Shown here piece by piece: positions 3,681 to 60,569 of a stretch of DNA of 64,000 bases. The notes beneath the pieces were generated by a model that saw only the letters and a list, made by a program, of their open reading frames with translations, had not been told where the DNA came from and ran no database searches. The stretch lies in the NCBI GenBank assembly GCA_965153355.1, contig OZ231126.1, positions 10,726,001 to 10,790,000 of the forward strand. Direction: 5' to 3'. The position numbers were made by a program, and so were the translations under genes. Each line of letters opens with the position of its first letter. Position 1 is the stretch's first letter. The stretch is from Flaccisagitta enflata. Taxonomy: Eukaryota.

Positions 3681-3684
3681 AACG

Positions 3685-9779: not shown

Positions 9780-11520
<1,741 letters not shown>

Positions 11521-17142: not shown

Positions 17143-17636
17143 TGTTAGGGACAGAATCTTGCATGCCCCCACACTTCCAAGCGCAAGCCCATCCTCACCA
17201 TGGCGAAGCGGTCCAAGGTCTAGGAGGGTTACTTGAGGCGCTTGGGCATGCCTGCCATGTCTTGACAAAAGGAAGAGTCCGTTGGATATTGATAGGATTG
17301 TATTGCATCTAGGAGAGGGAACAGGCTCGAAGTAGTTACGGTGCTGATGGCTGATAAACGGTGTTGATTATTGAAGACTACGCGGACAGCTATACTACCC
17401 TATACAGGGGCCCCAGTGATACCTCATACAATGTAAGGAAAAGGAGAGAATATGGTTAACGATGCATCGGTGCATAAGAATGACAATAAGGTTAATGATC
17501 ACTGGGTCTGATATTATGACACAGAAAGAGCTAACAATGAATGAAGCTATGACTACTTCACGGTAATATTCATCAGATTCCTCCATGGCATTGATAGAGT
17601 CCAGCCATGCTACTTTACAGTTTTTCATCCCTTACA
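17143..17636 (-). repeat. 5' LTR
   Basis: Direct repeat of 11622-12115, adjacent to the PBS. Confidence 0.95.
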
Positions 17637-17891
17637 GTAGCAGAGGTGCCAACTGCAGTGGCATTAGCAGTGTCAACAACAACACTAGGGACGTTTACAA
17701 CAACGAGATCAGCATCATCAGCAACAGCATTAGCGACAAAAACGCTACAAAGCAGCAACAGCAATACAATGACAACGACACAAAATAAACTCAAACCCGG
17801 TTTACAAATTCCATCGACATCATCCAAAACAACAACAAAGACAGAATCAAAAACTAATCTCGAAGAAAGCAACAACAACAACAATAAAAAA

Positions 17892-17932
<41 letters not shown>

Positions 17933-17943
17933 TCAACAAAAGT

Positions 17944-18113
<170 letters not shown>

Positions 18114-18184
18114 AAATAAAACAACAACAACAGCAACAAAAACAACAACAACGACATTAACAACAAAAATAACAACAAAAACAA

Positions 18185-18237
<53 letters not shown>

Positions 18238-18260
18238 GCAACAACAACAACAACAACACC

Positions 18261-18302
<42 letters not shown>

Positions 18303-22079: not shown

Positions 22080-24480
<2,401 letters not shown>

Positions 24481-26603: not shown

Positions 26604-34993
<8,390 letters not shown>

Positions 34994-38063: not shown

Positions 38064-41000
38064 TACTCGAAGTAATATAATTCAGAAAATGTCACAGACC
38101 GACAGACAATAAGATGGACAGACAAACCGACACAGCAAGGTGTAGAACAACATGCCCACAAATATTACAAGGCCGGATACACAACAACCCAATCATATAC
38201 AGTTGGATGCAAGCAGCAAGATAACAAGGCCGGATACACGGCTACCCCAGCTGCGTGTGAGTGGGCAGGAGCAGTGCTAGAAAAGGTCAACAGAGCATTT
38301 GGACCAACCAACCAACAGACCAACCGACCAACCGACCGACCGACCGACCGACCGACCGACCGATCGACTGACCGACCGACCGACCGACCGACCAACCAAC
38401 ATAGCAGGGCGGAGTCGCATAGCACACAACTAAAAATCGTTACAACTTTTCAAAATATTACAGACGAACCGACCGACCGACTGACACAGCAAAGTGTAGA
38501 GATGCGTGTCCCCACGACTAAAAACAAACCATAAATTCCAGTGACTTTGGTCTTTTTTTCTTGTGCATTAACGGGTGTTCGAATAAAAATTGGAGACAGT
38601 TTTTAATAGGTTAGCTTTTTTGTTAGGGCACCTAGGAAAAAACAATGAAATTACAAAAGATAGCGGATAACATAACTAACAGTTTGGTGAAAGAATCTTA
38701 ATTTTATCATGCACCATTGGAAAGAAAATCAAAATAAACAAATTCCTGGTGAAAAATTTCTACAGAGCCTGGGACAAAAGGCTAGTTTCCCTAGTCAGTG
38801 CTGCGCCAGTGTCTTGGAAGAAAACTAAATTGTCTTTTGTTTTCTTGCTGCAGCTTTTTTACAAAGGAGAGGAGGCTTAGAGCTTGGTAGTCAAAAGATT
38901 CATCTTACATGTCCTAAACATGTAACAAGTAATACCCTCTGAATCAAAGACACTTCCTCAATGCAATCTAACTTAGCCAAGCCAAGCCAAGCCAAACCAA
39001 GTCAAGCAAAGCCAATCCTTCCTGATCTAAGCCAAGCCCCCAGTCTATGTCAAGCTAATCAAGGTCATTTCACATTCAAAAAAAGTTAAGGCAAGCCCCT
39101 CTAAATCATCCATGTTGTCTTCAGACAAACAAAGCTAACCTTGGTTGTGATGAACATACTGCATCCCAGATTCCCAATTTTCTTACTTTTGCTAATGTAT
39201 TTTTGTGGTGAGCTAAAATTGTATAATGTAAAGATATAAGCGAAACATGTCAAAGATGAAATTTGATCGATAAGGTTTGATTGGAAACAAAGGCATCAAT
39301 TTTTGAATTAAGGATCTCTACTTTACAAACCAGATCTTACTCATAGCCTTGAAATTTTTCAGATTTTTCTTTTTGCTTTAGTATTTCATGTATTGTAATC
39401 TAATGTTTCCTGATTGACAAAATAGAAAAGATTGACTTTAATTCAGCTATACGGCGTTAAAATGGGCCAACAGCCATATGCAAATTAGGAGGTGCGCAGA
39501 TCATCCTCAACTGAAATGTTCTTAAAACATTAACTTTTAAGAATGAATATACAAACCAAATATACATGGCTGATTGAGTATATGCAACAAGACTTAATCT
39601 AACCCAGTTGCTTAAACCATGCAAGATTTTATAATTGAACCACATTTGAAACTATGCTGTTAACATGCATATTGTGCCTACCATCTTAGAGGAATGATTT
39701 GAATTATTGCCATTTAATTATTACAAACTTGGAACAAAAAACATGAAACGGCAACAAAGAGGGCTTGCAAATAAAAAAACAGCAATATGCAAATAAGAAA
39801 AAGCAAAAAAGAAAAGCACTTTACTCTGGCTGCTTGAAATAGACAAAATGGGATGATAATATTGTTGTGGATGAGAGGCGGGATTAAATCCCTTTGTTGG
39901 TGCAAATGCAACAGGCCATATTTGACTATTTTGTTTGTTGACTTCTTCCTCTCTTAGTCAGAAAATCCGATATTTGATTTTGTGCTTTTGATATAAATAT
40001 TTTAGTCACAACCATTTGGCTAAATGTATACCCTTTTACTTAAACATTTTAATGTAGCCCACATGTAAAGATAACATATTTGTCATTTCAAAAATTGACA
40101 ATTTTGGCTGCCAGCAGCATTGAGGGCAAAAACTTAGTGCCATGGATATGGAAACAGTAAGCTACCAATCTCAATGAAAGTAACTGCTTTATGCAAATAA
40201 AGTCAGAACATCACTACTCTTTTTTGTTTTCTCTTCAACAATGTACCATCTCATTTGCATATTGTAGCATCGACCTTCAGGGATGAAACCTTGGTAAAAT
40301 AAAGATTTTTTCTCCTTGTAATACAGGGCGGATATCATTTTGATAAAGGGTTAAGGTGACTGATATTTACAAAGAGATATTACAAGTGTTGTTAAACAAA
40401 TTTAAAGATGAATGTTAATCATTAAAGACAAACTCAATTGTGTTGGCCATTCATTTTTAAAAAATGCAAATACTTTTTGAATGGAAAGATCTTTTACCGG
40501 GACATCATGGATTTGAACTCACTTATATTTTTATTGCATATCCCTTTTTCAATATTTGACATGTTTAACTGCAGCTTTTATCAAGCATAAGATTTCATTG
40601 CAATGTACTGAATGAATAAAAGTAATAAGCAGTTACATAGCTCCGTTACTTTAGCATAACTGAACTCACTTTTGTACCTTGTGGATTAGGGGATTTAACC
40701 AATCTTACAGAAGTCAAATAGATGCTCTCATGATAGTCGTAAAATGATATTCTTGCTCCAAGGACATTGCATAATTGAAAAGACTGAGTTAGTTATTAGA
40801 CAAATGGGCCAATGATCACCATGGGTTGATTTAACGAACATATCAAAATGACAACAGGAGGCTATTTGACAGGTTATCATAGAGCTGCAATATGCTAATG
40901 AATTAATCGGTCCCTGGACTATGTCATTCAAAAAGCTGTTGTTGCATGAATAGACCTAAAAGAGTGATTGAACACATGACTGAGGAACAAATTGTTGATT

Positions 41001-43539
41001 CCATTCCACATATCTCAATTTATCATGCTTACTGGGTCAAAGGATCATCCAAATAGTTGACCATGTTAATTCTAAAGAGGTATCCCAAGAGAGAATTTCA
41101 CTGTTTGACCATGAAAAATTCATCTCTTTTTTGTCATGTAAAGTCTTAGAATTTTATTGTTTTTTTAACATATAATCAAACAGTAAAGAGTCAAATGGAT
41201 GCCACTACAGTTGCTGTCAACTGATCTAGTTACTTCAAGAACATTGTGCACTAATTGTTTTTACATCAATTGTTAGACTAGTGGACCAGTTCCCTCTACG
41301 AGATGAAATAACCTACCTCTAAAACTGACATTTAGATGGCTACTTATCAGGTACTAAGAGAGCTGCAATATGCTAATGAGATTAACGGTCTCTCCTCATT
41401 CAGTGTTATCAATGCGTTCAATGGTTGATAGGAGAGACTAGAGGAGAACTAGTTGGTTCATGAGTTCTGATGCACAACAGGCTGGATCTGGATGGCTCAT
41501 ATGCTACTTGCCATAAGAGCATTTTTTGATTACTGGAGCATCAAGATGGAATGTGAAAACACAATCTTTAGACAATCTTTTCTCTATTTGGCAGCCTATA
41601 AGAATCAAAATGGTAGGCCCTTTGAAGACAGTCAAATGTTGAGAAAGATGATCAAAATAGCGATCAAACTGTAAATAGTCAAGTGGATGCCACCATAATT
41701 GTTGTTAAATGATCTCATTGCTTCAAGGACATTGCACATATCAAAAAAGTGTCATGACCATTGAAATGATGGACCAATGATCTACTTGGCATGAACGAAA
41801 GTGCCTATAAAATGGACATTTAGGAGACTATCTATTAGGTTACCATAGCGTAACAATATGCTAATTATATCCTGTTCTCAGTCTTTTAAAGGACTCTAGT
41901 TGCTTGGAAAAAGCTTTATTTAAAAGGCTGTATTTACAATTCATCCATTTTTGAGGATGTAAGCAATGCTAATAAAACACTTGTCAATTGATGTAAAAGC
42001 TCCAAGGTCATGAAAGATATTCTAACGCCCGTAGGTCAGGCAAACCCTCTTCAGAAATTGTTTCAAACAGCAGTTTTGGTTCTAACAAGCCCAAGAGGGC
42101 AACAGTCGCGTGCGTCTGGATATGACAAACAAAAGATTTCCTCCTCCAAGGCTGTGCGATATGTCAATATGTCGATACAATATCGATACGATATCAATAT
42201 TGGTACAATGTCGATACAATACAATACCCAAAAATACCCAAAAATACCCAGAAGTACCCAAAAATACCCAAAAATACCTAGAAATACCCAAAAATACCCA
42301 AAAATCATCAGAATTAGTCAAAAATATCTAAAAATATCTGAAAGAACCCTAAAGTACCCTAAGTACCTAGAATAACTTAAGTACCCTGAAGTACTCTGAA
42401 GTACCCTAAAGTACCCTAAAGTACCCTGAAATACCCAAGAGTACCTTAGATTACCCTTAAAGACCCTAAAAAGTCATAATTTTAACAATGTGACGGACGG
42501 ACGGACGGACCTACCGACCGACCGACCGACCGACCGACCGACACGGTAAGGTGTAGAGTCGCGTGCACGCGACTAAAAACAAATCATTAATGAATCAAAA
42601 ACCTACTTGTGTTTTGATTTAAAGTTCCTAAGTTTTTCTTCAGGTTACCCAACATTCAAATAAAAATTTTTTATACATAGATCCTTTAGCTGATATGATT
42701 TTACTATTTACACATCAGAGGATAAAATGATTGAAATTACATAATGAGAAGTATCCCCTGACATGAAAAAAAAAAGAAAGATGTACATCATAAACCAACT
42801 TGTCAGTTCATGGATTTCAAAATACAATATTTTTGTAGTCAACAGCAAATAACATCTTACTTCAAGAAAGGATAGCTAATCCACTACAATATGCAAATGA
42901 GATTGACACTGATTCAATCTCCTTAACCTTAGGAAAGTCAAAAATTTTCCTAACAAAACAATATTGTGTATTCATAAATCCAATATCTTCAGTTGCAAAC
43001 TTGCTGTGTGGGTCCATCAGTCCAATTGTCAATTTGTACCTTTTTTAAAATGTGTATTTTGCTATATTGCCCCTGACCACCCATCCACAATTGGGTGACT
43101 GAGTCCATGGCCATGTTGGTTTATGATTAAAGGCAAAAAAATGATTGGCTGCATCTACAAAGTTTGATGAAATCATTTGCATATTGCAGAAACTGACTTG
43201 GCCTGATCAACATATTGATCCATATTTTGCATTTGACTTTTTTTCTTTTCAATAATTAATCATGACTCTTGATGATATATTAATCGCTTAAAACTTTTTT
43301 ATCTGCCTCTTAAATTGGAAGCAAGAAACTATCTGTCAATCAATCTCACTCATTGAAAACAGTTTTAAAGCTTCATCTTAAATAACATGAAACCAAGGGA
43401 AAAGTTTGCAGGGGAGGGTAGAAGAGGTAAAGATTGTTTTATGTACCATTTCTTTCTTTTCAAAGAAAACATAGTCTTAGCTTAGGAAAGAAAGTAGAGC
43501 TTAAACGCATAGCAAGGGTTTAGAATTGCAAGTAATGTT

Positions 43540-44000
43540 TAAGAATAGAAATGTGATTAGGTCTAGGGGTTGAAAATGATGGTAAAGGTGTACAGTTTAG
43601 GGCTTGTGGGAAAGGGGTTGGGATAAGGAGTAGGTTTTGGTGCAGGGTTGAGTAAGGGGTAGGGTTGGAGTTAAGGGAAGGGGTGGGGAAAGGGATAGTA
43701 GTTGAGTTGGGAGTTAGGGATAGGGGCGGAGTTAGGGGAAGGGGCAGGGTTAGGGGTGGGGTTAGGGGTGGAGTAAGGGGTAGAGGTGGAGTTAGGGGTA
43801 GGATTAGGTGAGCTAAGGGTAAGGGGTGGAGGTTGAGTATGGGGTCAAAGATCCGTGGTGGGGGTCGAGTCAAGGGTAGGAGTGGGGTAAGGGGTAGGGG
43901 TGGGGTAGAGGTAAGGGCTAGTCTAGGGTTAGGGCTGAGTCTAAAGGTAGGGGTGAGTCCAGGGGTGTGTCTGAAGGTAGGGGATAGGGCACATGACTGG
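43540..44000 (+). repeat. Degenerate telomere-like G-rich (TTAGGG-like) tract
   Basis: GTTAGGG/GTAGGG/GTTGGG hexamers. Perfect TTAGGG runs occur at 44270-44305 and 45427-45438, and CCCTAA at 51496-51507. Confidence 0.75.
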
Positions 44001-44031
44001 GGTAGCGGCATGTCCAGCCTTTTCATCCAAC

Positions 44032-44136
<105 letters not shown>

Positions 44137-44339
44137 GTCTCTCTCTGTCTCTCTCTCTCTCTATCTCTCTCTCTCTGACAAAGAATCATTGCCATCGGTT
44201 CGTCTATTCAGTGTCGCGAATCCTGAGAAGGATTTTTTGTGAACATGAGCTTGATGAAGGAGAGGATGGTTAGGGTTAGGGTTAGAGTTAGGGTTAGGGT
44301 TAGGGTCCATCGCCCAAAATTTTCTAAACATCATTTTAA

Positions 44340-47300
44340 CTTATTCTGTCTATTTTTGTTCATGTCTCTTGCCTCCTCATGCCTGCTCATGTCTCCTTAT
44401 GTCTCCTTGTGTTTCTTCATGCCTCCTTGTCTCTCTTCATGTCTCCTCATGTTTGGTCAAGTCTCCTCATGTCTCTTTGTGTCCATTCACACCTGCTTAT
44501 ATCTCCTTATTCCTCTTCATGTCTCCCATGTCTCCATGTCTCTTAAAGTTTATTCATGCCCAGGCCTGATTTTAGAGCGAGCCCGCGAGCCCGATGCCCT
44601 CTATTTTGCTCTCGGGCTCTCATGTTTTGCAAGCTCTGAGCCCGGTGGGCTCTCTCTCATTGGGATGGATTCAAAGCGCTGATTGAGAAAAATATTTGGA
44701 AAATAAGCAGGTCTTGAGTCGTTATTTGATTTTTTCATGAATTGAATCATTGTAGTTGTGACTAATATATCATTACATCATAAAACCAGTGGCTGTTGTT
44801 ACAAATTTAGGCTGATATAATGGTAAAATTTGGCACAACGTTTTTTTCCGGGCTCATGCTCTTCCTGTCGGGCTCTGTCAAATTGTGGGGAGCGAGCCCG
44901 ACTGGCTCAGTCAAAGAAATCACTAAAATCAGGCCTGTTCATGCCCCCTCATCTTTCCTCATGTATCCTCATGTCTCATGTCTTTTCATGTCTCTTCATA
45001 TTTCCTTATGTTTCCCATCTCCTCATGTCTCTTTATGTCTCCTTTTGAATCTTCATGTCTCTTCATGTCTCCTCATTTCTTTTCATGTCTTTTCATGTGT
45101 CTTCATGTCTCTTCATGTCTCTTCATGTCTCTTCATGTCTCCTCATGTCTCTTCATGTCTCTTCATATTTTCATGTCTCTTGATGGCTTTTCTTGTCTTT
45201 TTATGTTTCCCATGTCTTCTCCTTTCTATTCATGTCTCCAGATTTCCTTTTTTGTCTTTTCATGTCTCTTTTCATAAAACGACATGGAGGGTCATGAAAA
45301 AAGATGGAGAGACATGAGAAGACAAGAGAAAACATGAAAAGACATGAAGAGACATAAAACAACAGTTTTGCAAATCCTGCGAAGGATTTTTGTGAACATG
45401 AAATTGATGAAGGAGAGGATGGTAAGGTTAGGGTTAGGGTAAGGGTCCATAGCCTGAAATTTTCTAAACACCATTTCTAACATATTCTGTCTATTTCTGT
45501 TCATGTCTCTTGCCTCCTCATGCCTACTCATGTCTCCTCATGTCTCCTTGTGTTTCTTCATGTTTCCTCATGTCTCCTTGTGTCTCTTCATGTCTCCTCA
45601 TATCTGGTCATGTCTCCTCATGACTCTTTGTATCTCCTCATGCCTGCAAATATCTCCTTATTGCTCTTCATGTCTCCCATGTCTTCACGTCTCTTTAAGT
45701 CTATTCATGCCCCCTCATCTCTCCTCATGTATCCTCATGTCTCATGTCTTTTCATGTCTTATCATGTTCCTCCATATTTCCCCATGTTTTTTATTTCACT
45801 TTATGTCTCCTCAAGTCTTTTCATGTCTCCGCATGACTTTTCCTGTCTCTTCATCTCTTCACATGTCTCTCCAAGTTTCCTCATATTTATTCATATTTCA
45901 TCATGTCTTCTCATGTCTCCTCATGTCTCCTCATGTCTTTTCATGTCTCCTCATGTCTCTTTATGTTTCATCCATTCATTTCATGTGTCTTCAAGTCCCG
46001 TCATGTCTCTTGTAGTCTTCTCATGTTCTTCATGTCTCTTCATGTCGCCTTATGTCTCCTCATGTCTCCTCATGTCCTTTTATGTCTCCTCCATTCTTTT
46101 CATGTGTCTTCATGTCCCATCATGTCTCTTGTAGTCTCCTTATGTTTCCTGAAGTCTGTTCGTGTCTTCTCATATTTTTTCTAGTCTTTTCATCTCTCCT
46201 CAAGTCTCCTTATGTTTCCTGAAGTCTTTTCATGTCTCCTCATTTCTTTTCATGTCTTTTCATGTGTCCTTATGTCTCTTCATGTCTCTTCATATTTTTC
46301 ATGTCTCTTCATGTCTTTTCATTTCTTTTCATGTCTCTCATGTCTCTTCATGTCTCTTCATGTCTGTTCTTGTCTTCTCATGTCTTCTCCTGTCAATTCA
46401 TGTCTCCTAATTTTCTTTTATGTCTTTTCATTTCTCTTCATGTCTCTTCATAAAAATACATGGAGGAACATGAAAAGAGATGGAGTGACATGAGAAGACA
46501 AACGGAGACATGAAAAGACATGAAAAGACATGAAGAGACATAAGATGACATGAAAAGACATGAAGAGTCATGAAGAGATATAAACAGACAGGAGGAGATA
46601 TGAAAAGACTTGGAAAGACCTTAGGAGACATGAAGAGACATGAAAGACATAAACAGACATGAGAAGACATAAAAAGAAATAAGGAGACATGGATAGACAT
46701 AAGAAGACATGAAAGACATGAAAAAACAAGAAAAGACATGAAAAGACATGAAAGAACATGAAAAGACATGAAGAGACATGAAGAGACATGAAAAAACTTA
46801 AAGAGACATGAAAAATATGAAGAGACATGAAGAAACATGAAGAAACATGAAGAGACATGAAGAGACATGAGGAGACATGAAGACACATGAAAAGACATAA
46901 AAAGAAATAAGGAGACATGAAGAGACATCAGGAAACATGAGAAGATATGAGGAGACATGAGAAGACATGAAAAGATTTGAAAAGACATGAGGAGACATGA
47001 AGAGACATGAAGAGACATGAAGAGACATGAAGAGACATGAAGAAACATGAGCAGACTACAAGAGACATGAGAGGACATGAAGACACACGAAAAGACATGA
47101 AGAGACATGAGAAGACATGAGCAGACATGAAGAGACATGAAGAGACATAAAAAGATATGAAAAGACATTATACTTCATGGAAAGACAGGAGAGACATGAA
47201 AACACTTGAGGACACATAAGTAGACATGAAGAGACATGATGAGACACAAAGTGATATAAAAGACATGAAAAGACATGAAAAGTCATAAGAAATGAGGAGA

Positions 47301-47495
47301 CATAAAAAAACATGAGAAGACATGAAGCGACTTGAAAAGAAAGAAAGAGACATGAAAATACATGAAAAAACATGAGGAGACATGAATAATGATGAGGAGA
47401 CATGAAGAGACCTCAGAAGACATGAGAAGACATGAAGAGACATGAGAAGACATGAAGAGACATGAGAAGACATGAAGAAACATGAGAAGACATAG
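44340..47495. repeat. 10-bp CATGTCTC(C/T)T minisatellite that switches orientation at ~45280 and ~46455; resumes at 50760-51440
   Basis: CATGTCTCTT units to the left of the axis and GAGACATGAA units to the right. Confidence 0.95.
44561..44937. mobile_element. hAT-type MITE
   Basis: Perfect 15-bp TIR CAGGCCTGATTTTAG, exact 8-bp TSD TTCATGCC and GAGCCCG subterminal repeats. The paralogous site at ~45704 is empty. Confidence 0.92.
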
Positions 47496-47498
47496 AGA

Positions 47499-48331
47499 TA
47501 GTATGCACCGTTGTAGCAATAATGTGAAAGTTACCATGCCATCTCGATATGTTATGAAGCCTTTGGACCTTTGTGATGGTGTTTGAAAAAAGAAAAAGTA
47601 ATATTTCTATCGAATAGCAAATTTACTTTTCATTTAAAGATGACATGTCAAAGGCTAATTTTCGCTCGAATTTTTACCCCATTTTTGCTCGACCCTCAGA
47701 TTCATGAGAAAACCTATTAAGTCATTCTTTCATCTTAAGGGCAATAATGACATAAATTGTTACAATCAGGGAAAGAGAGAATACGATTATGTGATAAAAT
47801 GGCAAACAAGATTATAAAATACATTTTTCACACGCCACAATGTCAAAATTATCGAAAACCGCAATATGCAAATGAGCTTATCAAGCGAACCTGAGAGCGA
47901 CTCGTAACTAGTCTAATTTCATTATTCCCAAGAGGGCAACAGTCGCATGTTTGTTTTACAATGACACACACGACTGAAAAATTACATGATGATAGTTTTG
48001 AATATGATCTTATAACAGATATTATAATTACAACATATGATATGTATGTATACAATACATAGACAGTCGTCAATCAGGTGGGGAAAGTAAACCGCCACAA
48101 GTCAGTAATTCAAATCATTCTTCTCTTGTAACATTAAGTTATAACATTTTCAAATGCGTTCTCGAATCTTGGTAAGAAGCTTTGTCCGTCCGTCTGTCCG
48201 TCCGTCCGTCCGTCCGTCCGTCCGTCCGTCCGTCCGTCCGTCCGTCCGTCCGTCCGTCTATCCGTTCGTTCGTCCGTCCGTCGCATTTGTCTTGTGTTAA
48301 ATCGAGCAAATCGGGCAAAATCGCGCAAGAG

Positions 48332-48402
<71 letters not shown>

Positions 48403-50754
48403 GTGCGCGATGACAAGCCCAGTCACAGGACGAGAGCGCAAAGGACGCATCTATAGGTTGAATTTCGGCCTTGTTCCTTCCATTCCTCCCTTCCCTCCTT
48501 CCTCCTTTATTTTCTCCCTTCATTTCTTTCCTTCCTCCCTTTTGATCCAAACTTCCTTAAATTAGAATTATTCTCTTTTATTTTTCCTCCCTGCCTTCCT
48601 TCCATGACTATTCCTTCCATTACTACCCTCCTCCCTTCCTTCTATTCCTATCTTCAATTCCTTCATTCATTCTTACCTTCCATTACTCCTTTCTATTCCG
48701 ACCTTGCTTCCATTCCTTCCGTCCTTCCCTCCTTTCATTGTTTAGCTTTTGAAACAACCTCTATACCCAATGTTTATCCAAAAAAGTTCAAAATTTGGGA
48801 CGGACTGACAGGCAAAGATTGCATATAAAGGCATCATTAGATTGAATATATGTGACGATTTTATAAGACAAAATCTAAACAGGTGAAAAGGAATAAGAAT
48901 AGTGTGAATGCCTGAAAAAGCGATATTAAGGCAGTGATGTGAAGGGCAGCAAATACAATGATTTACGGAGAGTTTTAAAAACTGCCCGCATATGAAACAA
49001 GAACCATATGCGTATATTCTATCTCAAAAAAAAAAATCTTTACTCGATGAAAATAAGTTCAATTATTGACGTAGAAATAGATATAAATCGATGATTTGTC
49101 CAATTAGTGCTTACTGGACATCCAGAGCAAGAACTTTTTGTTCACATAAAAAAGTCATTCAAGAATCGCACATGGTCAATGGTACCCGATGCCTTGCTTG
49201 GAATGATCAGCAAAAGAAGTGGGGTGAGAGCAGAGCAATGGCCCCAAAGGACCGATGTCTTGTAGGACACAGGGGTTAATTTCCATACATCCTGAGGGGC
49301 AATTTATGATTTTCAAAGGGAGTTTTACATTTTTTAAAAATTTCTTATCAGTTTTCTGTTATTCAATGGGAATTTTCTTTTTTTTTTATTTTTTCTTTAT
49401 CAATTTTCCATATCATCCAATTGGATTTTCAAATTTTTTTCATTTTTTTGTCAATTTTCCAAGTTACTCAATAAGAAATGAGCATTTTTCTATTTTTTGG
49501 AATAATTTCCATGTTATTCAATGGGAAGTTAGCATTTAGTCATTTTTCCATGTTATTCAATGGGAACTTGAGAATTGAGAAGCTTTGGGGGATGTACAAA
49601 TGGACAGACGGACAAACGTAAGGATGGATGGATGTAAGGAAATTCACCCCTGTGGCCTACAGGGCATCGGCCCTTTGGGGCCGCTGCTAAAAAAAGGATT
49701 CATTCAGAGAATATCGACAACTTTATCAAAGCAATTCTTAACATGACCTCCCCATACACGGCATGATTGGGGAGACATCTCATGGTATTCTACCATGACC
49801 TGTCGCCACACCTTCCGCGGCCGAGACCGCCCAACCAACACACTGGAGAAGAAACAAGGCCGGATACACGGCTACCCCAGTCACGTGCGGGTGGGCAGGG
49901 GTCATATTCAAGGTCAGTGGAGCATTTGAGCAGGAGCGGTATAGCCAAAAAGCCCATAAAGGCCGAAAAGTAAAGTGTGACGGAAGGACCGACGGACGGA
50001 AGGACGGACGGACGGACCGACAAAGCGGGGTGTAGAGTCGCGTAGCACGCGACTAAAAAGAAGAAGAAGTAGAAGAAGAGGAAGAAGAGGAAGAAGGGAA
50101 GGTCGATGAAAGGGAATGTACGAAAGAGCATACCATGTATCATTGTCATTGCTGCGTCATATTGAAGATGTTGAAGAAGAAGAAGAATAAGAAGAAGGAA
50201 GAAGAAGAGAAGAAGAAGAAGAAGAAGAAGAAGAAGTGAAGAAGAAGAAGAAGAGATGGAGAAGAAGGGAAGGAAGAAGGGAAGAGAGAAGAAGAAAAGA
50301 TAATTAGCGTTGGGTCTCAATAGCGTCGCAGACAGGGGGGAGGCAGGGAAATTGCGTATTTTGATACTATCACTTGAGGATCACAGACAGACTGATGGAC
50401 CAAATGGGCAGATGGACAATGCCTATCATAGAGTCAAGTCTGCGACTGTAAAAAAGGAGCGTGCAATACATAGTGACTAGCTTACTAATGCCACACAAAG
50501 TACTATTCAATAACCAAAAAAATTACCAAATTTGCATGTGCATGCTCTCGTTAAGGTTCGATCTAGCGGGAAATCTGTGTCATCGGAGGCTCGAAATGAC
50601 GTCGAAAAGACAAAAAAGTAGTATTTTTAAAATCAAAAGTGAATTTGCTAAAATTCATCTAAATGAGTTGAAACTTTACAAATATCTTCTAAACACCCTC
50701 TAGTGCTGTAAACATATCGAGATGGGTCATAACATAGCTTTACGGGCCATACTA
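47499..50754. mobile_element. Non-autonomous TIR element with apparent 7-bp TSD, inserted in the GAGACATGAA satellite
   Basis: TAGTATG..CCGT / ACGG..CATACTA termini, inverted blocks CCATCTCGATATGTT and TAGCAAATT.ACTTTT, and ATAGAGA on both flanks. Confidence 0.65.
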
Positions 50755-51602
50755 ATAGAGAGACGTGAAAAGACATAAGAAGACATGAAAAACATAAAGA
50801 GACATGAGGAAACATGAGGAGACATAAGGAGACATGAAGGGACATGAAAAGAAATAAAACAACATAAAGAGACATGAAAACACATGAAGAGACATGGGGA
50901 GACAAGAGGAGACAAGAGGAGACATGGAAGTTTATGTGGAGACATAAATCATGAAAACAGATGTGGAGACATAAGGAGACGTGAAATGACATGAAGAGAC
51001 ATAAACAGTAATGAATAGACATAAAGGGATAAGAAGAGACATAAGGAGACATTAGGACACATGGAAAGACATAAAGATCCCTTCATCACTTACAATCTTT
51101 CCCTGTAGTCTTCTGAGGAAAAGGTGTATGCAATCCTACACAGCTAAATGCACCTAGGCTACACACAGACTTTGATTTTCTAAGATCAAAAAAATTCCAT
51201 TTCTTTTTCTCTCCCTTTCTCTTTCTTCAAGACAACAGCCTGGCCTCACATGCTTGACTCGATCAAGAGAGAGGGAGACATGAAGAGGAATAAGGAGATA
51301 TTAGCAGGTGTGAGGAGATACCAAGAGACATGACCAGACATAACCAGACATGAGGAGACATGAAGAGAGACAAGGAGACATGAAGAATTACAAGAAAACA
51401 TAAGGAGACATGAGTAGGCATAAGGAGACAAGAGACATGAACAGAAATTGACAAAATATGTTAGAAATGGTGTTTAGAAAATTTTGGACTATGGACCCTA
51501 ACCCTAACCCTACCGTCCTCTCCTTCATCATGTTCATGTTCACAAAAAATCTATCTCAGGATTAGTGAAACTGAAAAGACGAACCGATGGCGATGATTCT
51601 TT

Positions 51603-51668
<66 letters not shown>

Positions 51669-53309
51669 TCCTGTAGAACACAGGGGGGAATTTCCAGACG
51701 TCCGTCCGTCCGTCCGTCCATCCTTCCGTCCTTCCGTCCTTCCCTTGTTGGCTATCAAGACCTAAGATTTGCCCTCCCAGCCCTCGATTTAGCCTTTGAG
51801 GCCTTTAATCAGCCTTCCAGGCTTATAATCAGTCCATTCAGCCTCAAATCCGACCTCAAGACCTCAAATCTGACCTCCAGACCTTCAATTAGCCTCTAAA
51901 GCATCAAAACAGCCCTTCATGGTTCATATATGCCCTCAAAACCTCAAATCTGCTCTCCAAGCCTTAATTCTGCCCTCCAGCCTTCAAATATGCCCTCAGT
52001 GGCCTAAATTAGTCATCTAAGGCCTGAATTATGCCCCCTCAGGACGTCTGGAAATTGCCCCCTGTGTTCTACAGAACATCGGCCCTTTGGGGCTACTGCC
52101 CTGCTCTCACTCCACTTCATCACTGGATCACTCCCAGCAGGGCATCGGGTACCGCTGACCATGTGCGATCCTTGGATGACTAGTTCTAAACTCACCCCAC
52201 CCATGGGACTAAACCCTACCCTTGAAATCAACTCTCAAAACCTAGGCTTAATTGCATCTTTTATGCCTTTTGAATATCTGAACTGAAACTCCTCAAAAGA
52301 TTCCTTATTTGAGAATTTGTTTTCAATGTTAATCCTTTGACATTCTAATACAAGATAAGCCCCTTATTCCTGCCCCCCTAAAAAACCTACATGTTGATAA
52401 CGAAAGTTGAAGATGAAGGTCATGAATATTCCTTTTGGATGAGTGAGATTGGTTGACAGACAGTGTCCTCCCACCAGAACAAGACATGAAACAGAAAGAT
52501 ACTTGAGAGCTGGACATCTTCAAGAGTCAAGATTTATGATAGAATACAACAAATTCACATATGAAATGTGGCTGAAGATTTTGATCAGGAGAAGATAATA
52601 TCTGCAATATGCAAATGATTTCATGGGTTTTTAAAGGTGTAGCCAATCTTCCTCTTGACCTGTAGTTTTACAAAAACGTGCTCTCCAAAACCAAAAATGT
52701 TTGATTGATTGATAAACATCATCAAAAAGATTCTGCCTATACAGTTCTGCATCCATTGACTAAAATTTTTGCCAAATCCAAATCAGGGCCATTTTTGTAA
52801 GAGGAAAACAAGATTTTTCCATTAGTTAGTACTTTGACTTGCTTCCGGCCAGATTCAATATCATTTGCATATTGTAGAGTGCAATTAGACCTCTCTTTTT
52901 ATATTGTTTAATCAATTTTTCTTTTCTTATTACTTCAGAAATGCTTTTGATTGAAATCCATGAACTATAAATTTGATCCATATTTTGTTCATGTCAGAAG
53001 ATATCTTTTGTGATGTAGATTTAATAGTTTCATTCATTGGGATGTAAAAGTATTTGTAAAAATAAAATATTCCAGAGCAATATTCTCCTTAGCTGCATTG
53101 GTCATACTTCATCTCAATTATTGGGGCTCACTGCAACCTAATCTTATATCCTTAACTATATCTTTGCCCTTCCCTTTAGACATATCTGAAAACCTGTCAA
53201 TACCCTTTTGACCCATTCATGAGCAACCTTGCCATTTTAAAATGAGAACTAACAGACAGAGAACCGTCCATTTGTCTTCCACCCATTTTTCAGACATTTT
53301 ATGCAACTA

Positions 53310-56300
53310 AAACAGTAAAAAAGACTTAGAAGGGCACTGTCAATCTCATTTGCATATAGCAGCACTACAGTGACCAAGAAAAAATCTCCCTGAATGCCCT
53401 TTTTTTTCAGGCATTGATTGGTCTCTAGTAGATCATTGGTCCATCAGTCTAACAATCAAGTCCATCTCTTGATGTCTGCAACGCTTAAGAGTCATTCTGT
53501 AATTGGACCCCTATCATATTGGAATTCATTTTGCTCTTAACAGTCTCTTAACAGTCTGTCACTCCTCAAAGAGTGTTAGGCTAACTTAGATAACCTAATA
53601 ACCAATCTTTGCGTTTCTGAAAAAGTTTAATCTAGTTCCTCCATTCAGATTTTCTGACATACCAGTCTATGCCCTCTACACCCATTGACTCACGAGCCAT
53701 CTGACCAGTTGTTAGTGAGAGTTAGGAGATAGAGAACCTTCCACTTGTTCCCCCCTTTTTTAGTCACTGACACGCGACTCTACACCTTGCTGTGTCGGTC
53801 GGTAGGTCGGTCGGTTGGTAGGTCACATTTTTGAATTCCAAGCGGTTTTCGCATTACTGCTCCTGCCCAACCGTCCGCGACTGGATTGCCGTGTATCTGG
53901 CCTTGTTTTCAACCAATTTTGCAGCCAAATCAGTATGAAACACTAAGAGGGGACACTGTCAATCCTATTTGCATATTGCAGCTCTACAGTAACGAAGACC
54001 AAACTTCCTGAATGTCATTTTTCGAAGGTGCATGAATCAGCATTTTGTAGATCATTAGTCCATCAGTCTGACAGTCAAGTCCATTTCTTGATATCTGCAA
54101 AGCCTCAGAGCCATTCCATGTTCTGACCACTATCTTTTATGACTTGATTTTGTTCCTTACAGTCTTACAAAGACCTAGAAAATCCCATAAACTTGATCAT
54201 GTATAGAGATAAATAATACTATGATTAAAATCTTCCCATTAATAAAGTAAATTCCCTTCACCCTTTTTGACTCACGAGTCAAGGGCGATCTGGTTGGCTT
54301 TTAACAAAACTAACAGATGGAGACCTATTCATTTGTCTTCCTTTCTTTTTTTTTAATGATTCATGCAGTTGAAACAGTATAAATATTCAGTAGGGAAACT
54401 GTCAATCTCATTTGCATATTGCAGCTCTATAGTAATCTAATAAAAACATCCTGAATATCATTTCTTTCAGGGGCAATAAATGATATCTAGTAGATCATTG
54501 GTCTAATAATCCAATACGTAGGTCTATCTCTTGATTTCAGCAATGCCTAAGAGTCCTCACATAATTGGACCATTTTTATGTAGAAATTCATTTTGCTCCA
54601 AATAATCTTACAGAGACCAAAGAAATAACTTTCCTTGCTTAGTAATGACATGTGTGTTAACTTTTCTCCCCCTCAATGAATCATTGACTTGCAAGCAATT
54701 TGGCAAAATTTGAAAGAGAATTAATTGTCTTCTACCCTTTTTTTCAACACATCATGCAGCCAAAACCGTATAAAAGACTCAAAGGGACACTGTCAATCTT
54801 ATTTGCATATTGCAGTTCTATAGTGACCATAAAACAAGGCCGGATACATGGGTACCCTAGTCGCGTGTGGGTGGGCAGGAGCCGAAAAAGTAAAAAGGGG
54901 ACCGACCGACAATCTGACCGACCAACCGACCGACCAATTAACATAGCGGGTGTAGAGTCGCGTAGCATGCGACTAAAAACTTCCTAAATGACTTATTTTT
55001 AGGCGCTTAAATTGGCCTTCAGTCAATAATTAGTTCATCAGTCTAACAGTCAAATTCATCTCTTGATATCTGCAATACCTAAGAGCCATTGCATAATTTG
55101 AGCACTATCATTTTGGAATTCATTTTGCTCCTTAAAGTCAAACAAACACCTAAAATCAGATTTCTTAACAAACCAGTCTATGCTTTTTCACCAATTGACT
55201 AACGAGCCATCTGACCAGTTGTTAGGGATGATTAAGAGATAGACAACCTTCCTCTTGTTTTCCACACCTTTTTTAGTCGCATGCTTGCAACTCTACAACC
55301 TGCTTTGTCCATCTGTCCGTGGATGGGTTGGTCCCAATTTCACTATTTTTAATGATTTTATTTCTTTGACCTCACTGCTCCTGCCTAAATGGTCTAGTGA
55401 CCTCAGATATGGCCCCTGCCCACCCACATACAACTTCGATAGCCTTTCATGCAGCTGAAACAGTATGAAAGATTTAGTAGGGACACTGCCTATCTCATTT
55501 GCATATTGCAGCTCTATAGCGACCTAATAAAAACTTCCTGAATGTCTTCTTTTTTCAGGGGCATTGATTGGTCTTTACTAGATCATTGGTCTATTAATCC
55601 AATACATAGGTCCATATCTTGACTTCAGCAATGTCTAAGAGTTATCTCATATCTGGACCACTTTTATAATGAGATTCATTTTGCTCCTAACAGTTTTACA
55701 GAGTCCCAAAAAACAATGTCCGACTTTGCTTACCATGGTTTATTATGACGTGAATGTTATCTCAGTTCTTCCCCTAATTAACCATTGACTGGCAAGCAAT
55801 CTGGCAAAATTAGAATGAGAATCAAGAAAGGGAGATTCATTCAATTGTCTTCTATCCCTTCTTGGGCAATGGCCCAAAAGGTGATGAACTCCTGTAGAAC
55901 ACAGAGGGACTTTTGTTTGTCCATTCGTTTCGTTTGTCCCCCTCAGGCCCTCTCAGGCTTGAAATCTGCCCTCTCAGGCCTGAAATCTGCCTTCTCAGGC
56001 CTAAAATCTGCCCTCTCAGGCCTGAAATCTGCCTTCTCAGGCCTAAAATCTTCCCTCTCAGGCCTGAAGTCTGCCCTCTCAGATCTTAAATCTGCCCTGT
56101 TGAGCCTGAAATATGCTCTCTCAGGCCTGGAATCTGCCCTCTCAGAATCAAGGCTTGAAACGGCAGATTTCAGGCCTGAGAGTGTAGATTTCAGGCCTGA
56201 GTGAGCAGATTAAAGGCCTGATAGGGCCTGGGGGAAATGGATGGTCGGATGGACAAAAGAAGGAACAAAAGTCCTCCTGTGTTCGACAGGACTTTGTCCT

Positions 56301-56670
56301 CTTTGGGGCTACTGCCCTACTTCCTTTTATTCCAATTCACAACTAAGCAAAGCAGGGCAACGGGTATTGCTGACCACATATTGTCCTTGGGCGATAATGT
56401 CTTATGAAGCCAGAATAGTACAAACGGCTCAGAAGGTACACTTTCAATCTAATTTGCATTTTGCAGCTCTATAGTGACCACAAAAAAACTTCCTGAATGT
56501 CATTTTTTTCAGGTGCATAGGTCAGCCTTCAGTAGATCAATAGTATATCAGTCTAACAGTTAAGTCAATCTCTTGATATATGCAATGCCTAAGAGCTATT
56601 CCATGATTTGACCACTACTATATTGGAACTCATTCTGCTCCTTGCAGTCTTAACAAATACCTAAAAAATC
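53310..56670. repeat. Six diverged ~400-600-bp tandem units, each containing CTCATTTGCATATTGCAGCTCTA
   Basis: Cores at 53348, 53967, 54410, 54801, 55497 and 56452. Three inverted homologues lie at ~40770-40920, 41240-41395 and 41720-41870. Confidence 0.85.
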
Positions 56671-58890
56671 ACCCAAAATTGCATAAGGATAAGGCATTTC
56701 TGATTGTTTAATTTAGTACTTCTCTTGGCGGTCCTAACAAACCTGTCTACGCCTAATGTACCCAGTTTATCTTAGCCATTCTATGCAATGTGAGACAGAG
56801 AAAGATAGAGTGACCTATGACCACAGCTGCATAATTAGGTGCGACAAAGCACCTCTAGAACTGGCTGTGTCCAACAGTTGGTCATTCATTTGGTCGGTTG
56901 ATTGGTAGGTCATTCATTTGATGATCCACACGTCGCACCCTACTTGGCCTTGTGTATGTTCTTTGAATTCATCAACAAGTAGAGCGACAGAAACACACAG
57001 CAACGTCATTATGCTAATGAGATTCTCATATCATTTTGATTCCACTGTTGGAGAAATGGAACTAAATCTAATTTGCATATTGCTGCATGTGTTTCAACCT
57101 GCTATGGTTGTCTTTTTTTCTTAGTAGGGGTTATTTGGTCATGTCATATGGTCATTGAAAGTAAGCAGGAAAAAAGTTTTCTCACTGCAGTAATTATCAT
57201 TTTCATCAGTGACCTCAGGCAAAATCCTTATTCATCACAATGGTAAACATGAAGCTTGTTTGATAAGTCAGATCATATTCAATCAAGGACACGCAATAGC
57301 GAAAGAATTCATCACCATGCTGTTTCAGTCTGTCTCACTCTGACTACCTATATGTCTAACCATCCAGTCATTGATCAGTCCCTCTTCATTATTTCTAAGA
57401 TTTTCTACTCTTGTTATTTTTTCGATTTAGTGCTATAGGTCACTGTAAGGCGCGCAAGTGTGAAATACTGTTGTACTGTAGTTTTGTAATACAGCCCCTG
57501 TCTTACTGATTTGGGCTTGATCATTTTCACAGGAGCATTCACTATTTTTTTTGCCATGGTATAATATAAATAATCATCACATTTGAAGTGTAAGCCTTGA
57601 TTACTCATACTTTGATAGCCATATTTTAATAGTATTTTTAATGAGGTTTTTATCCTTTGACAATATACTTAACCAGCAGGTTGAAACAAGCGTAGATCAA
57701 GCTAATGAAAATCATAAAATTGAAATGAACCCTTTAACCAAAAAAAAAAAAAGATGCAGTTCGGGTCAAGTGTTCGTTCCACACAGCACAGAGCCCAAAC
57801 TCACATTTTGATTACTTTTTTTTGTTTTACATCACTGAAGATTCAAAAAGAAAATTTCAGCAATATGTGAATAAGGATTGATACAAGCTGCCGTAAATGT
57901 CTGATTCAAACTTTGAGAGTAAGTAAAAAAAAATCATTTGCATACTGCAGTCATGTCAATTTTTAAAGGCTTGGCATCTAGCATCATAAATGAGAGATAT
58001 TCTTATATGCTTAAACAATTTTTGCAATACAAACTTTCAGCCGTTTGATAATTGAGACATTTGCTCTTGTGCTACTTCTTTGTTACCTTCAACATTACCT
58101 TTGTCGTACAAGACATAAATGAAATCAATTTCAGAGAACAAGTCAATTTCTGGGCAATGAGAATGTTTTTATGGCTCATGTAGTTCATCACAGAATTTTT
58201 TTTGAATGATTTTGTCACTTCAAATTTAAAAGTATCAGATTCATTGATGAAATATTGAAAAATATTTCTGTCACTTAATCAAAGCAAATCACAAAAAAGG
58301 CTTCACTCATACTCATACTTTTGTTCTTTTGTTTTCATTGCCTAGTTTAGAGGGCAAACTCAAGATGGCATCAAACTACAGCAAATTTTGCTTTGCCGTT
58401 CTACTGCTGCTGTCCCTGCAGTCTTTGACCTCTCACAAGACCTTTCAAGTGCAGAACAGAGGTTTCAAATGCCTTTTGTTCTTTTTTCAGGAAAAATGAG
58501 AAGAGACTGAGAAAAAAGACAAGTGGTGGCCCTCTTTAGTCTGATTTAGACATGAAAAAAAGGAACGACGCCATTGTTTATTTTGGTTGTTTTGAAAGAA
58601 GTTAAGGCATAAAACAACTCGTTTTTTGTCTTAGATTAAAGAGGAGACTAAGACATTCCTTTTGGTCTACCAAACATGCATGTTGTGCTTTCCTAAATGT
58701 GTTTTATTCATGATTTTCTGAATCTTTCATTTCCAACTGTTTATCTGTTTGTTTACACTAGTAAACAGAGACCATGAGCCATGACATGTTTAACTTAAGC
58801 TCTATGAACCACGATCTACGTCCAGAAAAAAATTGCACGTCTCTAGCTGCTCTGGTTTAGATTTCAATTTTTATTCGAACACCCGTTAAG

Positions 58891-59043
58891 AAGCGAGAGA
58901 AGATTGTCGACATTCAGGCTGCGGTGAATGTGGCAGATTCTGACGGAGATCGAAGAGTCGATTTCGCCGAATGGAGGAAAGAATTGAAGAAAAGAGGATA
59001 CGAAGAAGAAGAAATCGCGCAAGTTTTTGACAAATATGACAAG
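58891..59043 (+). CDS. PKD2: Polycystin-2 (TRPP/PKD2 family) exon, C-terminal EF-hand region
   Basis: 153-nt AG..GT exon KREKIVDIQAAVNVADSDGDRRVDFAEWRKELKKRGYEEEEIAQVFDKYDK matches the PKD2 tail pattern (..DFDE.RQ.LK..G....EIEA.F.KYD). Orthologue versus PKD2-like paralogue is unresolved. Confidence 0.85.
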
Positions 59044-59331
59044 GTGAATTTTAGAAAAATCAACGCATATAACAGCCGACTCCCGTAATTACGGATGCCA
59101 ATGTACTGACAAGTCAAAGGAGAAAATTCCGGTTATGCCAATATTTTTCAATAAAAGCCTAATTAATAACAACTCATAGTAGTAATGTTTTATATTCATG
59201 AAATAGAATAGATAAAATGCTTTACTTTGGTCTGCCTTTGTGTGTGTGCGTATGTGTGCGTGTGTGCGCATCTTCTTCTTGTTTTTTATTGCAGGATGGT
59301 GACAAAGTGTTGAGTGTGTGTGTGTGTGTGT

Positions 59332-59409
<78 letters not shown>

Positions 59410-59463
59410 CGCTGTGTGTGCATCTTCTTCTTATTTTTAATTGCAGGATGGTTACAAAGTGTT

Positions 59464-59628
<165 letters not shown>

Positions 59629-59684
59629 CGTATGTGTGTGTGCGCAGCTTTGTGTGCATCTTCTTCTTACATTTTCCATTGCAG

Positions 59685-59829
59685 GATGGTGACAAAGTGT
59701 TGAGCGCGGAAGAGAGAAGAAATATGTTGGAAGATCTGCAGGACAAAAAAGATGACATTGACAATAAACAAAAACAATTAGAGGAGCAACAAACTCACCA
59801 AGAAGAACTCCAAAAACAAAACAGTCGAG
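59685..59829 (+). CDS. PKD2: Polycystin-2 exon completing the EF-hand loop and following helix
   Basis: TTGCAG|DGDKVLSAEERRNMLEDLQDKKDDIDNKQKQLEEQQ..SR G|GTAAAT. The phase-0 join gives the EF loop DKDGDKVLSAEE. Confidence 0.85.
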
Positions 59830-60569
59830 GTAAATGACAATGTCAATTAGCGAAAGCAATAACAAGTGCCGCAAAAGACTGAACAACAAACGCATAAACA
59901 TAACGATTGAGATAAATGACAACAATAACATTCAGAGGGGCAACTCAGCAAGAAGAACACTAATAACTCGGAACAGTCGAGGTGAATGACAACGACAATA
60001 GATTTATAAAAACAACTACAAGAGCAGCAAACTCAGCAAGAACAAATTCAGAAACAAAGGATTTGTGGTATATCTCAGTGACATGACAATCAGTTAAAAA
60101 CAATTTGAATAAAGCAACAATCTAAGCGGAAACAGATTCAGAAACAAATGATTCGTTTTATGTGTCAGTGACACGACAATCACTTAACGAGTACCTCGGG
60201 AGTACAGCGATGCGTCCACATGCGGCTTAGCTTGTAAATAATCTCTCTTACACTCTCTCTCACACTTTCTCTCACACTTTCTCTCACACTCTCTCTCACA
60301 CTCTCTCTCACACTCTCTCTCACACTCTCTCTCACTCTCTCACGCTCTCCTGCCGCCTCTCTCCACACTCTCTCTGCCTCTCTCTCACCTCTCTGCTCTC
60401 TCTCACTCTCTCTCACACTCTCTCTCCACACTCTCTCCTCTCTCCACTCCTCTCTCCTCTCTCCTCTCTCTCTCACATATAATATATAACATAAATATAT
60501 ATATAATATATAATATATATAATATATAATATTTCATATATATATATATATATAACATATATATGTGTA

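Follow-up and report, generated by a model that had tools for sequence, protein, structure and literature searches.

The window analysed here, a stretch of 64,000 nucleotides of contig OZ231126.1 of Flaccisagitta enflata (assembly GCA_965153355.1, positions 10,726,001 to 10,790,000 of the forward strand, read 5' to 3'), contains a 20.3-kb interval at 38571-58886 (counted from the first letter of the window) that lies immediately upstream of an exon of a polycystin-2-like channel gene. This interval, hereafter termed the element, is bounded by short perfect terminal inverted repeats (TIRs), is built inside from repeat modules mirrored around a satellite, and is considered below as a candidate for a single, very large DNA transposon without proteins of its own. 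Its boundaries may be read in two ways, either as a 2-bp TA duplication with 22-nt ends ACGGGTG...CACCCGT (TA reading) or as a 4-bp TTAA duplication with 21-nt ends CGGGTG...CACCCG (TTAA reading); since TTAA is itself palindromic, both predict the same empty site. The ends and the adjoining exon are as follows:

38569..38570, left flanking TA, candidate target-site duplication and direct repeat of the TA at the right end; alternatively TTAA at 38568-38571
38571..38592, plus strand, left TIR, 22 nt long (ACGGGTGTTCGAATAAAAATTG) if TA was duplicated; with TTAA it starts at 38572 and has 21 nt
58865..58886, minus strand, right TIR, 22 nt long if TA was duplicated
58887..58888, right flanking TA; contigs of two marine-metagenome sequencing runs (X3 and X5) over 58496-58888 terminate at 58888
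58891..59043, plus strand, host exon encoding the EF-hand of a polycystin-2-like channel, with acceptor AG at 58889-58890 and donor GT at 59044

Exact copies of the 21-mer CGGGTGTTCGAATAAAAATTG lie at 38572-38592 (+) and 58865-58885 (-), and TTAA adjoins it at both ends (38568-38571 and 58886-58889). Two such matches were reached by none of 100 dinucleotide-preserving shuffles. An initial annotation of this DNA, which had described perfect 21-bp TIRs 20.3 kb apart beside TTAA, is therefore upheld on this point; the termini, given there as CAGGGTG, actually read CGGGTG (ACGGGTG under the TA reading). The same annotation had named a TIR that is merely a common dispersed motif as the finding that would speak against its proposal; at ≤3 mismatches, no third site exists in the 64-kb window. 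According to end-to-end alignment, the TIR likeness breaks off after exactly 21 nt. Degenerate partner ends, sought with a 13-nt end pattern at ≤3 mismatches, yielded 10 matches against 13 expected by chance, and a 13-letter part of the TIR had no match in a literature text search. None of the loose ends listed marks an empty-allele junction at 58885-58889, and no inference was drawn from this. A 3-bp TWA duplication as in PIF/Harbinger-like elements was rejected, since it would require ends shifted by one base.

Evidence on the target comes from other samples. The run search retrieved two runs of one organism (word shares 0.50 and 0.47) as well as marine metagenomes (up to 0.37), and contigs of X1, X3 and X5 together with polyA RNA reads of X24 were compared with 39314-59313 at 85% likeness. 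The right end is represented by a 393-nt contig of X5 (depth 106.5; record 24) and a 396-nt contig of X3 (depth 51.8; record 16), each spanning 58496-58888 with 14 differing letters. Both halt at 58888, directly after TA, the X3 contig adding three letters that do not match the window. This stop favours a TA duplication and a multi-copy end, since TTAA at every copy would extend the sharing to 58889. The TTAA surrounding the TA target is thus probably a coincidence, and a Tc1/mariner-like TA duplication is favoured. The hunch of the initial annotation that the ends are of the Tc1/mariner type is in line with these contig ends, and the TTAA superfamily that it had kept as an option is disfavoured.

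The insertion site reads, from 58888 on, KKREKIVDIQAAVNVADSDGDRRVDFAEWRKELKKRGYEEEEIAQVFDKYDK and then GT. The flanking exon matched EF-hand_1 with E 5e-5 and 23 bits, under the cut-off of 25.4, and is 87% identical over its full length to P0001, a 413-aa protein of public metagenome origin that carries PKD_channel, Ion_trans and EF-hand domains. The next exon (~59685-59834) extends this match at 69% identity in a coiled-coil region, and an atlas look-up of P0001 placed polycystin-2 at the top, at only 0.83. Relatives of the host protein were found at eight loci in metagenome contigs (41-54% identity), too distant to serve as an orthologous empty site. On the other side of the element, the left flank (...GGTCTTTTTTTCTTGTGCATTA) terminates in a 12-nt pyrimidine run, GGTCTTTTTTTCTTGTGCA, followed by TTA; a pyrimidine run of at least 11 nt within 25 nt upstream accompanies only 73 of the 3193 TA sites in the window (2.3%). 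If TA is taken as the target, the acceptor AG lies two bases past the element; the copy sits in an intron, 2 nt upstream of this AG. Since the pyrimidine tract on the left and the AG with its exon on the right form one intron-exon junction, a single insertion of the 20.3-kb unit is supported, and judged from the rebuilt 3' splice site such an event appears plausible. As a separate observation, the start of the second exon (~30 nt), together with its acceptor (TTGCAG followed by GATGGTGACAAAGTGTTGAG), is present three times, at 59290-59320, 59440-59470 and 59680-59710; the first two copies pass directly into (GT)n and look like local duplications inside a microsatellite.

The element does not appear to encode proteins. 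The window contains 333 open reading frames (ORFs) of at least 70 aa, of which the 87 with an amino-acid entropy ≥3.85 were compared with Pfam; none of the 18 located within the element exceeded the Pfam cut-off, and no transposase family was among their matches. In the whole set, a curated cut-off was exceeded only once, by a PT low-complexity repeat on a microsatellite elsewhere in the window. A further 192 ORFs of the element are 40-69 aa long, or longer with an entropy below 3.85; scanning the 129 with an entropy of at least 3.6 (the 63 below 3.6 were left out) gave nine sub-threshold matches to unrelated or low-complexity families and no transposase. The lack of coding capacity, as originally noted, thus holds for 147 scanned ORFs. 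Rfam and ARAGORN returned nothing inside the element. As for transcription, 19 of 30 bins of 39314-59313 were without polyA RNA reads of X24, as was the flanking exon, with ~6% of the run read; the reads obtained are confined to high-copy repeats (49319-50652 and a few other bins).

The interior was mapped with Tandem Repeats Finder (TRF; satellites and microsatellites), with BLAST and nhmmer (inverted blocks) and with a profile of the ~430-bp unit after one iteration. It comprises the following features:

38593..40704, left outer domain, no likeness to its counterpart on the right; octamer-type motif at 39474 (-), 39783 (-) and 40254 (+)
40705..41903, minus strand, three partial ~430-bp units (40705-40947, 41174-41404, 41664-41903), in the opposite orientation to the right array
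41964..42650, pieces of nested dispersed repeats of high copy number, with short 10-bp arrays at 42223-42445; from TRF and contig depth
42702..43437, plus strand, block B left, with the inverted motif pair 42887 (-) and 43176 (+); E 1e-35 against 53052-52350
43520..44036, plus strand, G-rich 18-bp repeats with TTAGGG-like cores
44037..44176, plus strand, (CT)70 microsatellite, facing (AG)30
44177..44560, plus strand, block C left, with (TTAGGG)n; E 1e-69 to both block C' and the inverted copy
44976..46451, plus strand, 10-bp satellite TCATGTCTCT, left arm, with 20/30-bp higher order
45363-45711, block C', second direct copy of block C
46452..46504, palindrome centre, satellite strand switch, almost loop-less
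46505..47498 (TRF 46505-47493), minus strand, complement AGACATGAAA of the 10-bp satellite, right arm part one
47499..50754, nested element of 3,256 bp whose ~200-bp inverted ends, TAGTATG...CATACTA, are imperfect; interrupts the satellite
50759..51077, minus strand, 10-bp satellite, right arm part two
51267..51605, minus strand, inverted copy of block C
51606..51666, plus strand, (AG)30, mirror of (CT)70
51667..52406, nested dispersed repeat with other copies at 55890-56496, 31885-32366 and 49151-49303; very high summed depth
52350..53052, minus strand, inverted copy of block B, carrying the motif at 52605 (-) and 52864 (+); overlaps at its inner edge with the nested-repeat end as aligned
53155-53284, 53301-53757, 53920-54346, 54363-54739, 54754-54834, 54881-55268, 55449-55858 and 56404-56809, plus strand, 8-unit array
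56810..58864, right outer domain, no likeness to the left outer domain; dispersed-repeat piece at 56834-56975, motif at 57072 (+) and 57937 (+)

The unit profile recovered eight full or partial copies on the plus strand at 53155-56809 and three on the minus strand at 40705-41903 (E 5e-32 to 3e-51), with no significant match in the other 43.7 kb of the window; the right array is broken by nested dispersed repeats at about 53757-53919 and 55860-56403. Block B aligns between 42702-43382 and 53052-52407 with 61% identity across 710 columns (E 5e-33), block C between 44116-44534 and 51666-51267 with 85% across 420 columns (E 4e-118). Strings shared exactly include a 16-mer at 42805 (+) and 52951 (-), a 24-mer at 43167 (+) and 52601 (-), and GATTGGCT at 43143 (+) and 52641 (-), and TTAGGG dimers are located at 44270, 45428 and 51496 (-). 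The mirroring of modules proposed at the outset, including the exact strings quoted for it, is therefore borne out, with units, block B, (CT)n/(AG)n, block C and satellite being collinear and inverted. A mirror copy of the G-rich 18-bp repeats was not detected. The 10-bp satellite does not occur elsewhere in the window. Its passage from plus to minus strand via TAAAAA is also present in one contig each of X1 and X5, the sequences of which were checked; the strand switch is thus not peculiar to this assembly. The matched inverted blocks have a common axis near 47,893, the midpoint of the ends being 48,728, and this axis is offset from the satellite flip because later insertions enlarged the right half. 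Once the nested element at 47499-50754 is removed, the topological centre emerges at ~46,455-46,505, so that the originally claimed mirror axis at ~46455 applies to the satellite flip and not to the axis of the matched blocks.

The palindrome does not reach the ends of the element. Between the outer domains, no mutual similarity was detected by nhmmer (E<0.01) or by word matching, and beyond the TIR the longest inverted words common to both are 15 and 13 nt, each containing the octamer-type motif. Inverted similarity begins ~2.1 kb inward from the ends (outer stretches of ~2.1 kb on the left and ~1.9-2.1 kb on the right). The palindrome is therefore internal, and the element is without long terminal inverted repeats. 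An origin as head-to-head dimer of two copies was rejected, since it would need homologous outer domains, which were not observed.

An octamer-type motif, TTTGCATATTG, recurs throughout the mirrored interior: at ≤1 mismatch it has 19 sites in the window, all 19 within the element. Left of the centre the sites are oriented minus at 39474, 39783, 40888, 41366, 41854 and 42887 and plus at 40254 and 43176, the right half carrying nine plus sites (52864 to 57937) and one minus site (52605), with an additional one at 47862 (-) in the nested element. The mirror pattern is obeyed by 17 of the 19 sites, the exceptions being 40254 (+), which has no partner, and 47862 (-). In block B, 43176 (+) and 52605 (-) represent the mirrored inner sites, around which a perfect 24-mer has been retained in both copies despite an overall identity of 61%. 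Within the ~430-bp unit the motif, ATCTCATTTGCATATTGCAG, is the best-conserved 20-mer (majority frequency 0.91 vs 0.79 overall). Retention of a 20-nt motif containing ATTTGCAT in 19 places would fit a constrained protein-binding site, and judged from its sequence conservation the motif is probably such a putative site, either a secondary transposase site or a site for a host octamer factor.

Several sequences have been inserted into this interior. The inverted ends of the 3,256-bp element reach a local score of 85 compared to a maximum of 64 in 200 shuffles, and ATAGAGA stands on both of its sides (47492-47498 and 50755-50761) within an otherwise continuous minus-strand satellite; such a 7-bp duplication would presumably suit P-like or hAT-like elements. 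Contigs covering it have low depth, both in X3 (47493-48178, depth 12.4; 48627-49002, depth 15; 50300-50754, depth 11.8) and in X5 (47493-48159, depth 11.4; 48508-49177, depth 18.2), and near-identical low-depth contigs (98-99% alike to the window) cover this nested central element only. As an observation in its own right, a non-coding, single-copy-looking 3,256-bp element is thus 98-99% conserved in two marine metagenome runs.

Other bins stand out by extreme depth. The bin 41982-42648 has a summed depth of about 1e6 in X1 and a joint from 42081 to 42573, and several bins reach 1e5 to 2.6e6 in X1 with abrupt loose ends at 49852/3, 52185, 53757 and 53907. These high-depth bins with sharp loose ends are nested high-copy repeats. 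The dispersed repeat at 51667-52406 is partly self-complementary (reverse self-match 52077-51627), and tandem 20-21-bp arrays lie within copies of it at 51842-51997 and 55947-56221. A dispersed repeat of very high copy number, with tails of (GACC)n/(GACG)n, was observed at 49852-50057, 38218-38390, 54833-54980, 42513-42579, 3616-3683 and 27508-27542; its summed contig depth amounts to ≤2.6e6 in one run, and it is matched by polyA RNA reads from both strands, all of them <95% alike.

The arms of the element behave differently from its centre in X3 and X5, where arm contigs are 87-96% alike to the window and deeper than the centre. Examples are 40658-40976 (depth 55.8) and 41421-41641 (depth 63.3) from the left arm in X5, and 42815-43434 (depth 41.7) and 57847-58150 (depth 37.4) in X3. 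An X5 contig over the left outer domain (39706-40271; depth 76.8) likewise lies above the central single-copy-like part, and within the right outer domain contig depth climbs toward the right end. The arms thus look multi-copy in other samples. Contigs of the left arm are about 95-96% alike to the window, and contigs of the family differ from this copy by about 4-5%.

Taken with a probability of roughly 0.55, 38571-58886 is one member of a family of cut-and-paste DNA transposons that are present in few copies, are very large, encode no protein, are mobilised in trans and have TA as target. A transposase supplied in trans would recognise the perfect 22-nt ends and duplicate TA, i.e., behave in a Tc1/mariner-like manner. 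The interior would represent an old internal inverted duplication rather than cargo genes: an ancestral order of units, block B, (CT)n, block C and 10-bp satellite may have been copied back on itself at the satellite, the likely cause being fold-back priming or an equivalent repair that would leave the near loop-less palindrome at 46452-46504. The two halves would then have diverged to 60-85% identity, with unit arrays and satellites growing unequally, and the right half would have been swollen by later insertions, namely the 3,256-bp TIR element at 47499-50754 and several high-copy dispersed repeats. Since the ends are perfect and the arms only 60-85% identical, the duplication is much older than the insertion; a very recent insertion does not follow, so that the recent move assumed in the initial annotation is not supported, the family divergence of about 4-5% being compatible with 44 unmutated terminal bases.

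A number of points weigh against this interpretation. The TIR 21-mer had no match in metagenome_contigs, and 20 kb is very large for a substrate of the Tc1/mariner type. The choice of TA is founded on the end points of two contigs from one study, which may end for other causes, and the flank depth derived by arithmetic from the last bin differs between the runs (~2 in X3 vs ~11 in X5). Summed word depth is not equal to copy number. For a fixed target, be it TA or TTAA, the flanking repeat alone is no proof of a single event, and given the unrelated outer domains the two ends could in principle belong to different insertions. The splice-site argument is one of sequence only, and no upstream channel exons were found by the match in the window, including the preceding 58 kb. 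Finally, the octamer-type motif is without likeness to the TIR, and its function is a matter of pure inference.

The same single element might instead target TTAA, as a piggyBac-like transposon or a member of another TTAA superfamily with 21-nt ends, which we regard as unlikely. Such a target would account for the perfect TTAA at both ends, the outer letters of which (an extra T and A) are coincidental under the TA reading. However, the X3 and X5 contigs lack the last base of TTAA, the three further letters of X3 do not fit, and the contig ends suggest that only TA is common. The ends of piggyBac elements classically start with CCC and close with GGG, in contrast to CGGGTG...CACCCG here. Kolobok elements, which share the flanking TTAA, carry 5'-RR...YY-3' termini according to PMC9587614, and the 5'-CG...CG-3' termini of the present element exclude this superfamily on that description. 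Somewhat more doubtful still is an origin from two unrelated insertions, in which the ends at 38572 and 58885 would stem from different internally truncated copies of the family and the sequence between them would be a repeat-rich intron with an old inverted duplication. This would be consistent with outer domains that have in common only the 21-mer and the short motif, with a fixed target that renders the flanking repeat uninformative, and with a centre at 47.5-50.75 kb that looks single-copy between arms that look multi-copy. That centre, however, is the nested TIR element with its own 7-bp flanking repeat in the satellite. Moreover, no other partner end at ≤3 mismatches exists in the window, the poly-pyrimidine tract of the acceptor lies directly outside the left end and not within the interval, and modules, units, motif and satellite are restricted to the interval and roughly centred in it after discounting the nested repeats.

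Two explanations without a mobile unit are much less probable. A non-mobile host palindrome, generated by fold-back repair at the satellite and with the terminal 25-nt inverted match as leftover or chance, would suit the almost loop-less centre in a CATG-rich satellite and the lack of a transposase among the ORFs scanned; it is nevertheless very improbable. Over ~2 kb on each side there is no inverted likeness, yet at the borders it reappears in the form of a perfect 21-mer, a pattern that decay would not yield; the right end is multi-copy in other samples, in which contigs break exactly at the border, and chance is ruled out by the shuffles (0/100). Least probable of all is a falsely joined palindrome. 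Satellite-rich palindromes are a classic source of misassembly, but the identity of the arms is only 60-85%, and many parts of the element are matched by contigs from three independent runs, those of X1 and X5 including the satellite flip. On this point the initial annotation, which had argued against an assembly artefact from the arm divergence, is supported.

Among known systems, mariner elements may have ends of similar sequence. Non-autonomous Tc1/mariner elements are alike in TA on both sides, with 22-nt perfect ends, no own transposase and contig ends fitting TA in the present case; the element is tens of times larger than typical derivatives resembling miniature inverted-repeat transposable elements, and no related transposase was seen in the window. 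As to foldback elements, to which the sea-urchin element TU belongs, the repeats of FB measure 10/20/31 bp, and a short-period satellite lies toward the middle here as it does in FB. Features common to FB, Tetris and the present element are the absence of coding capacity, modular mirrored arms of tandem repeats, a variable middle and a link to satellites. Foldback TIRs, according to PMC4079207, combine a tandem-repeat domain with a flanking and an inner domain and enclose a non-coding middle; the duplications measure 8-10 bp, and most of the elements belong to Mutator. Tandem-repeat arms around a non-coding middle are found here as well (147 ORFs without Pfam domain), whereas long TIRs running inward from the termini are replaced by 21-22 nt with the next ~2 kb unrelated, and the flanks have TA or TTAA only instead of 8-10 bp. 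The arms are 60-85% identical here vs near-identical in foldback elements, the tandem units measure ~430 bp vs ~220 bp in Tetris, and the size is 20.3 kb compared to Tetris TIRs of up to 1,735 bp (PMC4079207). The designation as foldback-like in the initial annotation is thus appropriate for the modular, mirrored, non-coding interior, but not for termini at which inverted similarity stops short and the duplication amounts to 2 or 4 bp.

Galileo, a foldback-like member of the P superfamily, may serve as a working analogy for the unit arrays and the motif. As described in PMC3573991, its two arms gain and lose tandem repeats independently, the longest arms occur in non-autonomous copies, and the arm tandem repeats hold proposed secondary transposase-binding sites. 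The same paper gives TIRs of about 300 bp to 1.2 kb that reach the termini at about 95% identity and 7-bp duplications, none of which applies here. Foldback architecture may arise independently in different superfamilies, as stated in PMC3573991 and PMC4079207.

Elsewhere in the window, two nearly identical 78-aa ORFs are located on the minus strand 5.5 kb apart (11877-12110 and 17398-17631), and a long array of (AAC)n/(CAA)n adjoins each of them (9782-11517; 17870-18301). This arrangement points to a segmental duplication. Very long microsatellites are (AAC) x579 at 9782-11517 and (AAAG) x555 at 22231-24477. The sole Rfam match in the window is a tRNA-Ile (anticodon TAT) at 510-582 on the minus strand.

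Size, internal palindrome, motif array and splice-site position of the element are unusual, the mechanism class is ordinary, and no new category of system is implied. A more far-reaching proposal, tentative and on balance improbable, would see here a hitherto undescribed transposon family with TA as target, giant in size (about 15-20 kb), whose members move as single units despite an internal near-loopless palindrome and have arms composed of arrays of a selectively maintained octamer-type site (ATCTCATTTGCATATTGCAG). Such elements would act as mobile batteries of putative POU/octamer-factor or transposase sites and might seed the 10-bp and ~430-bp satellites of the host genome. If the preferred reading of a protein-less, TA-targeting transposon is true, a foldback-like, satellite-bearing architecture can exist inside an element whose ends are short and ordinary and whose target measures 2 bp, which would add to the view that such architectures originated independently across transposon superfamilies and would raise the known size of protein-less TA-type elements. 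It would also provide a concrete case of tandem units and a 10-bp satellite carried, and possibly spread, by a mobile element. For the host, a 20-kb palindrome-bearing insertion at a distance of 2 nt from a splice acceptor in a polycystin-2-like gene could have consequences for splicing or for genome stability nearby.

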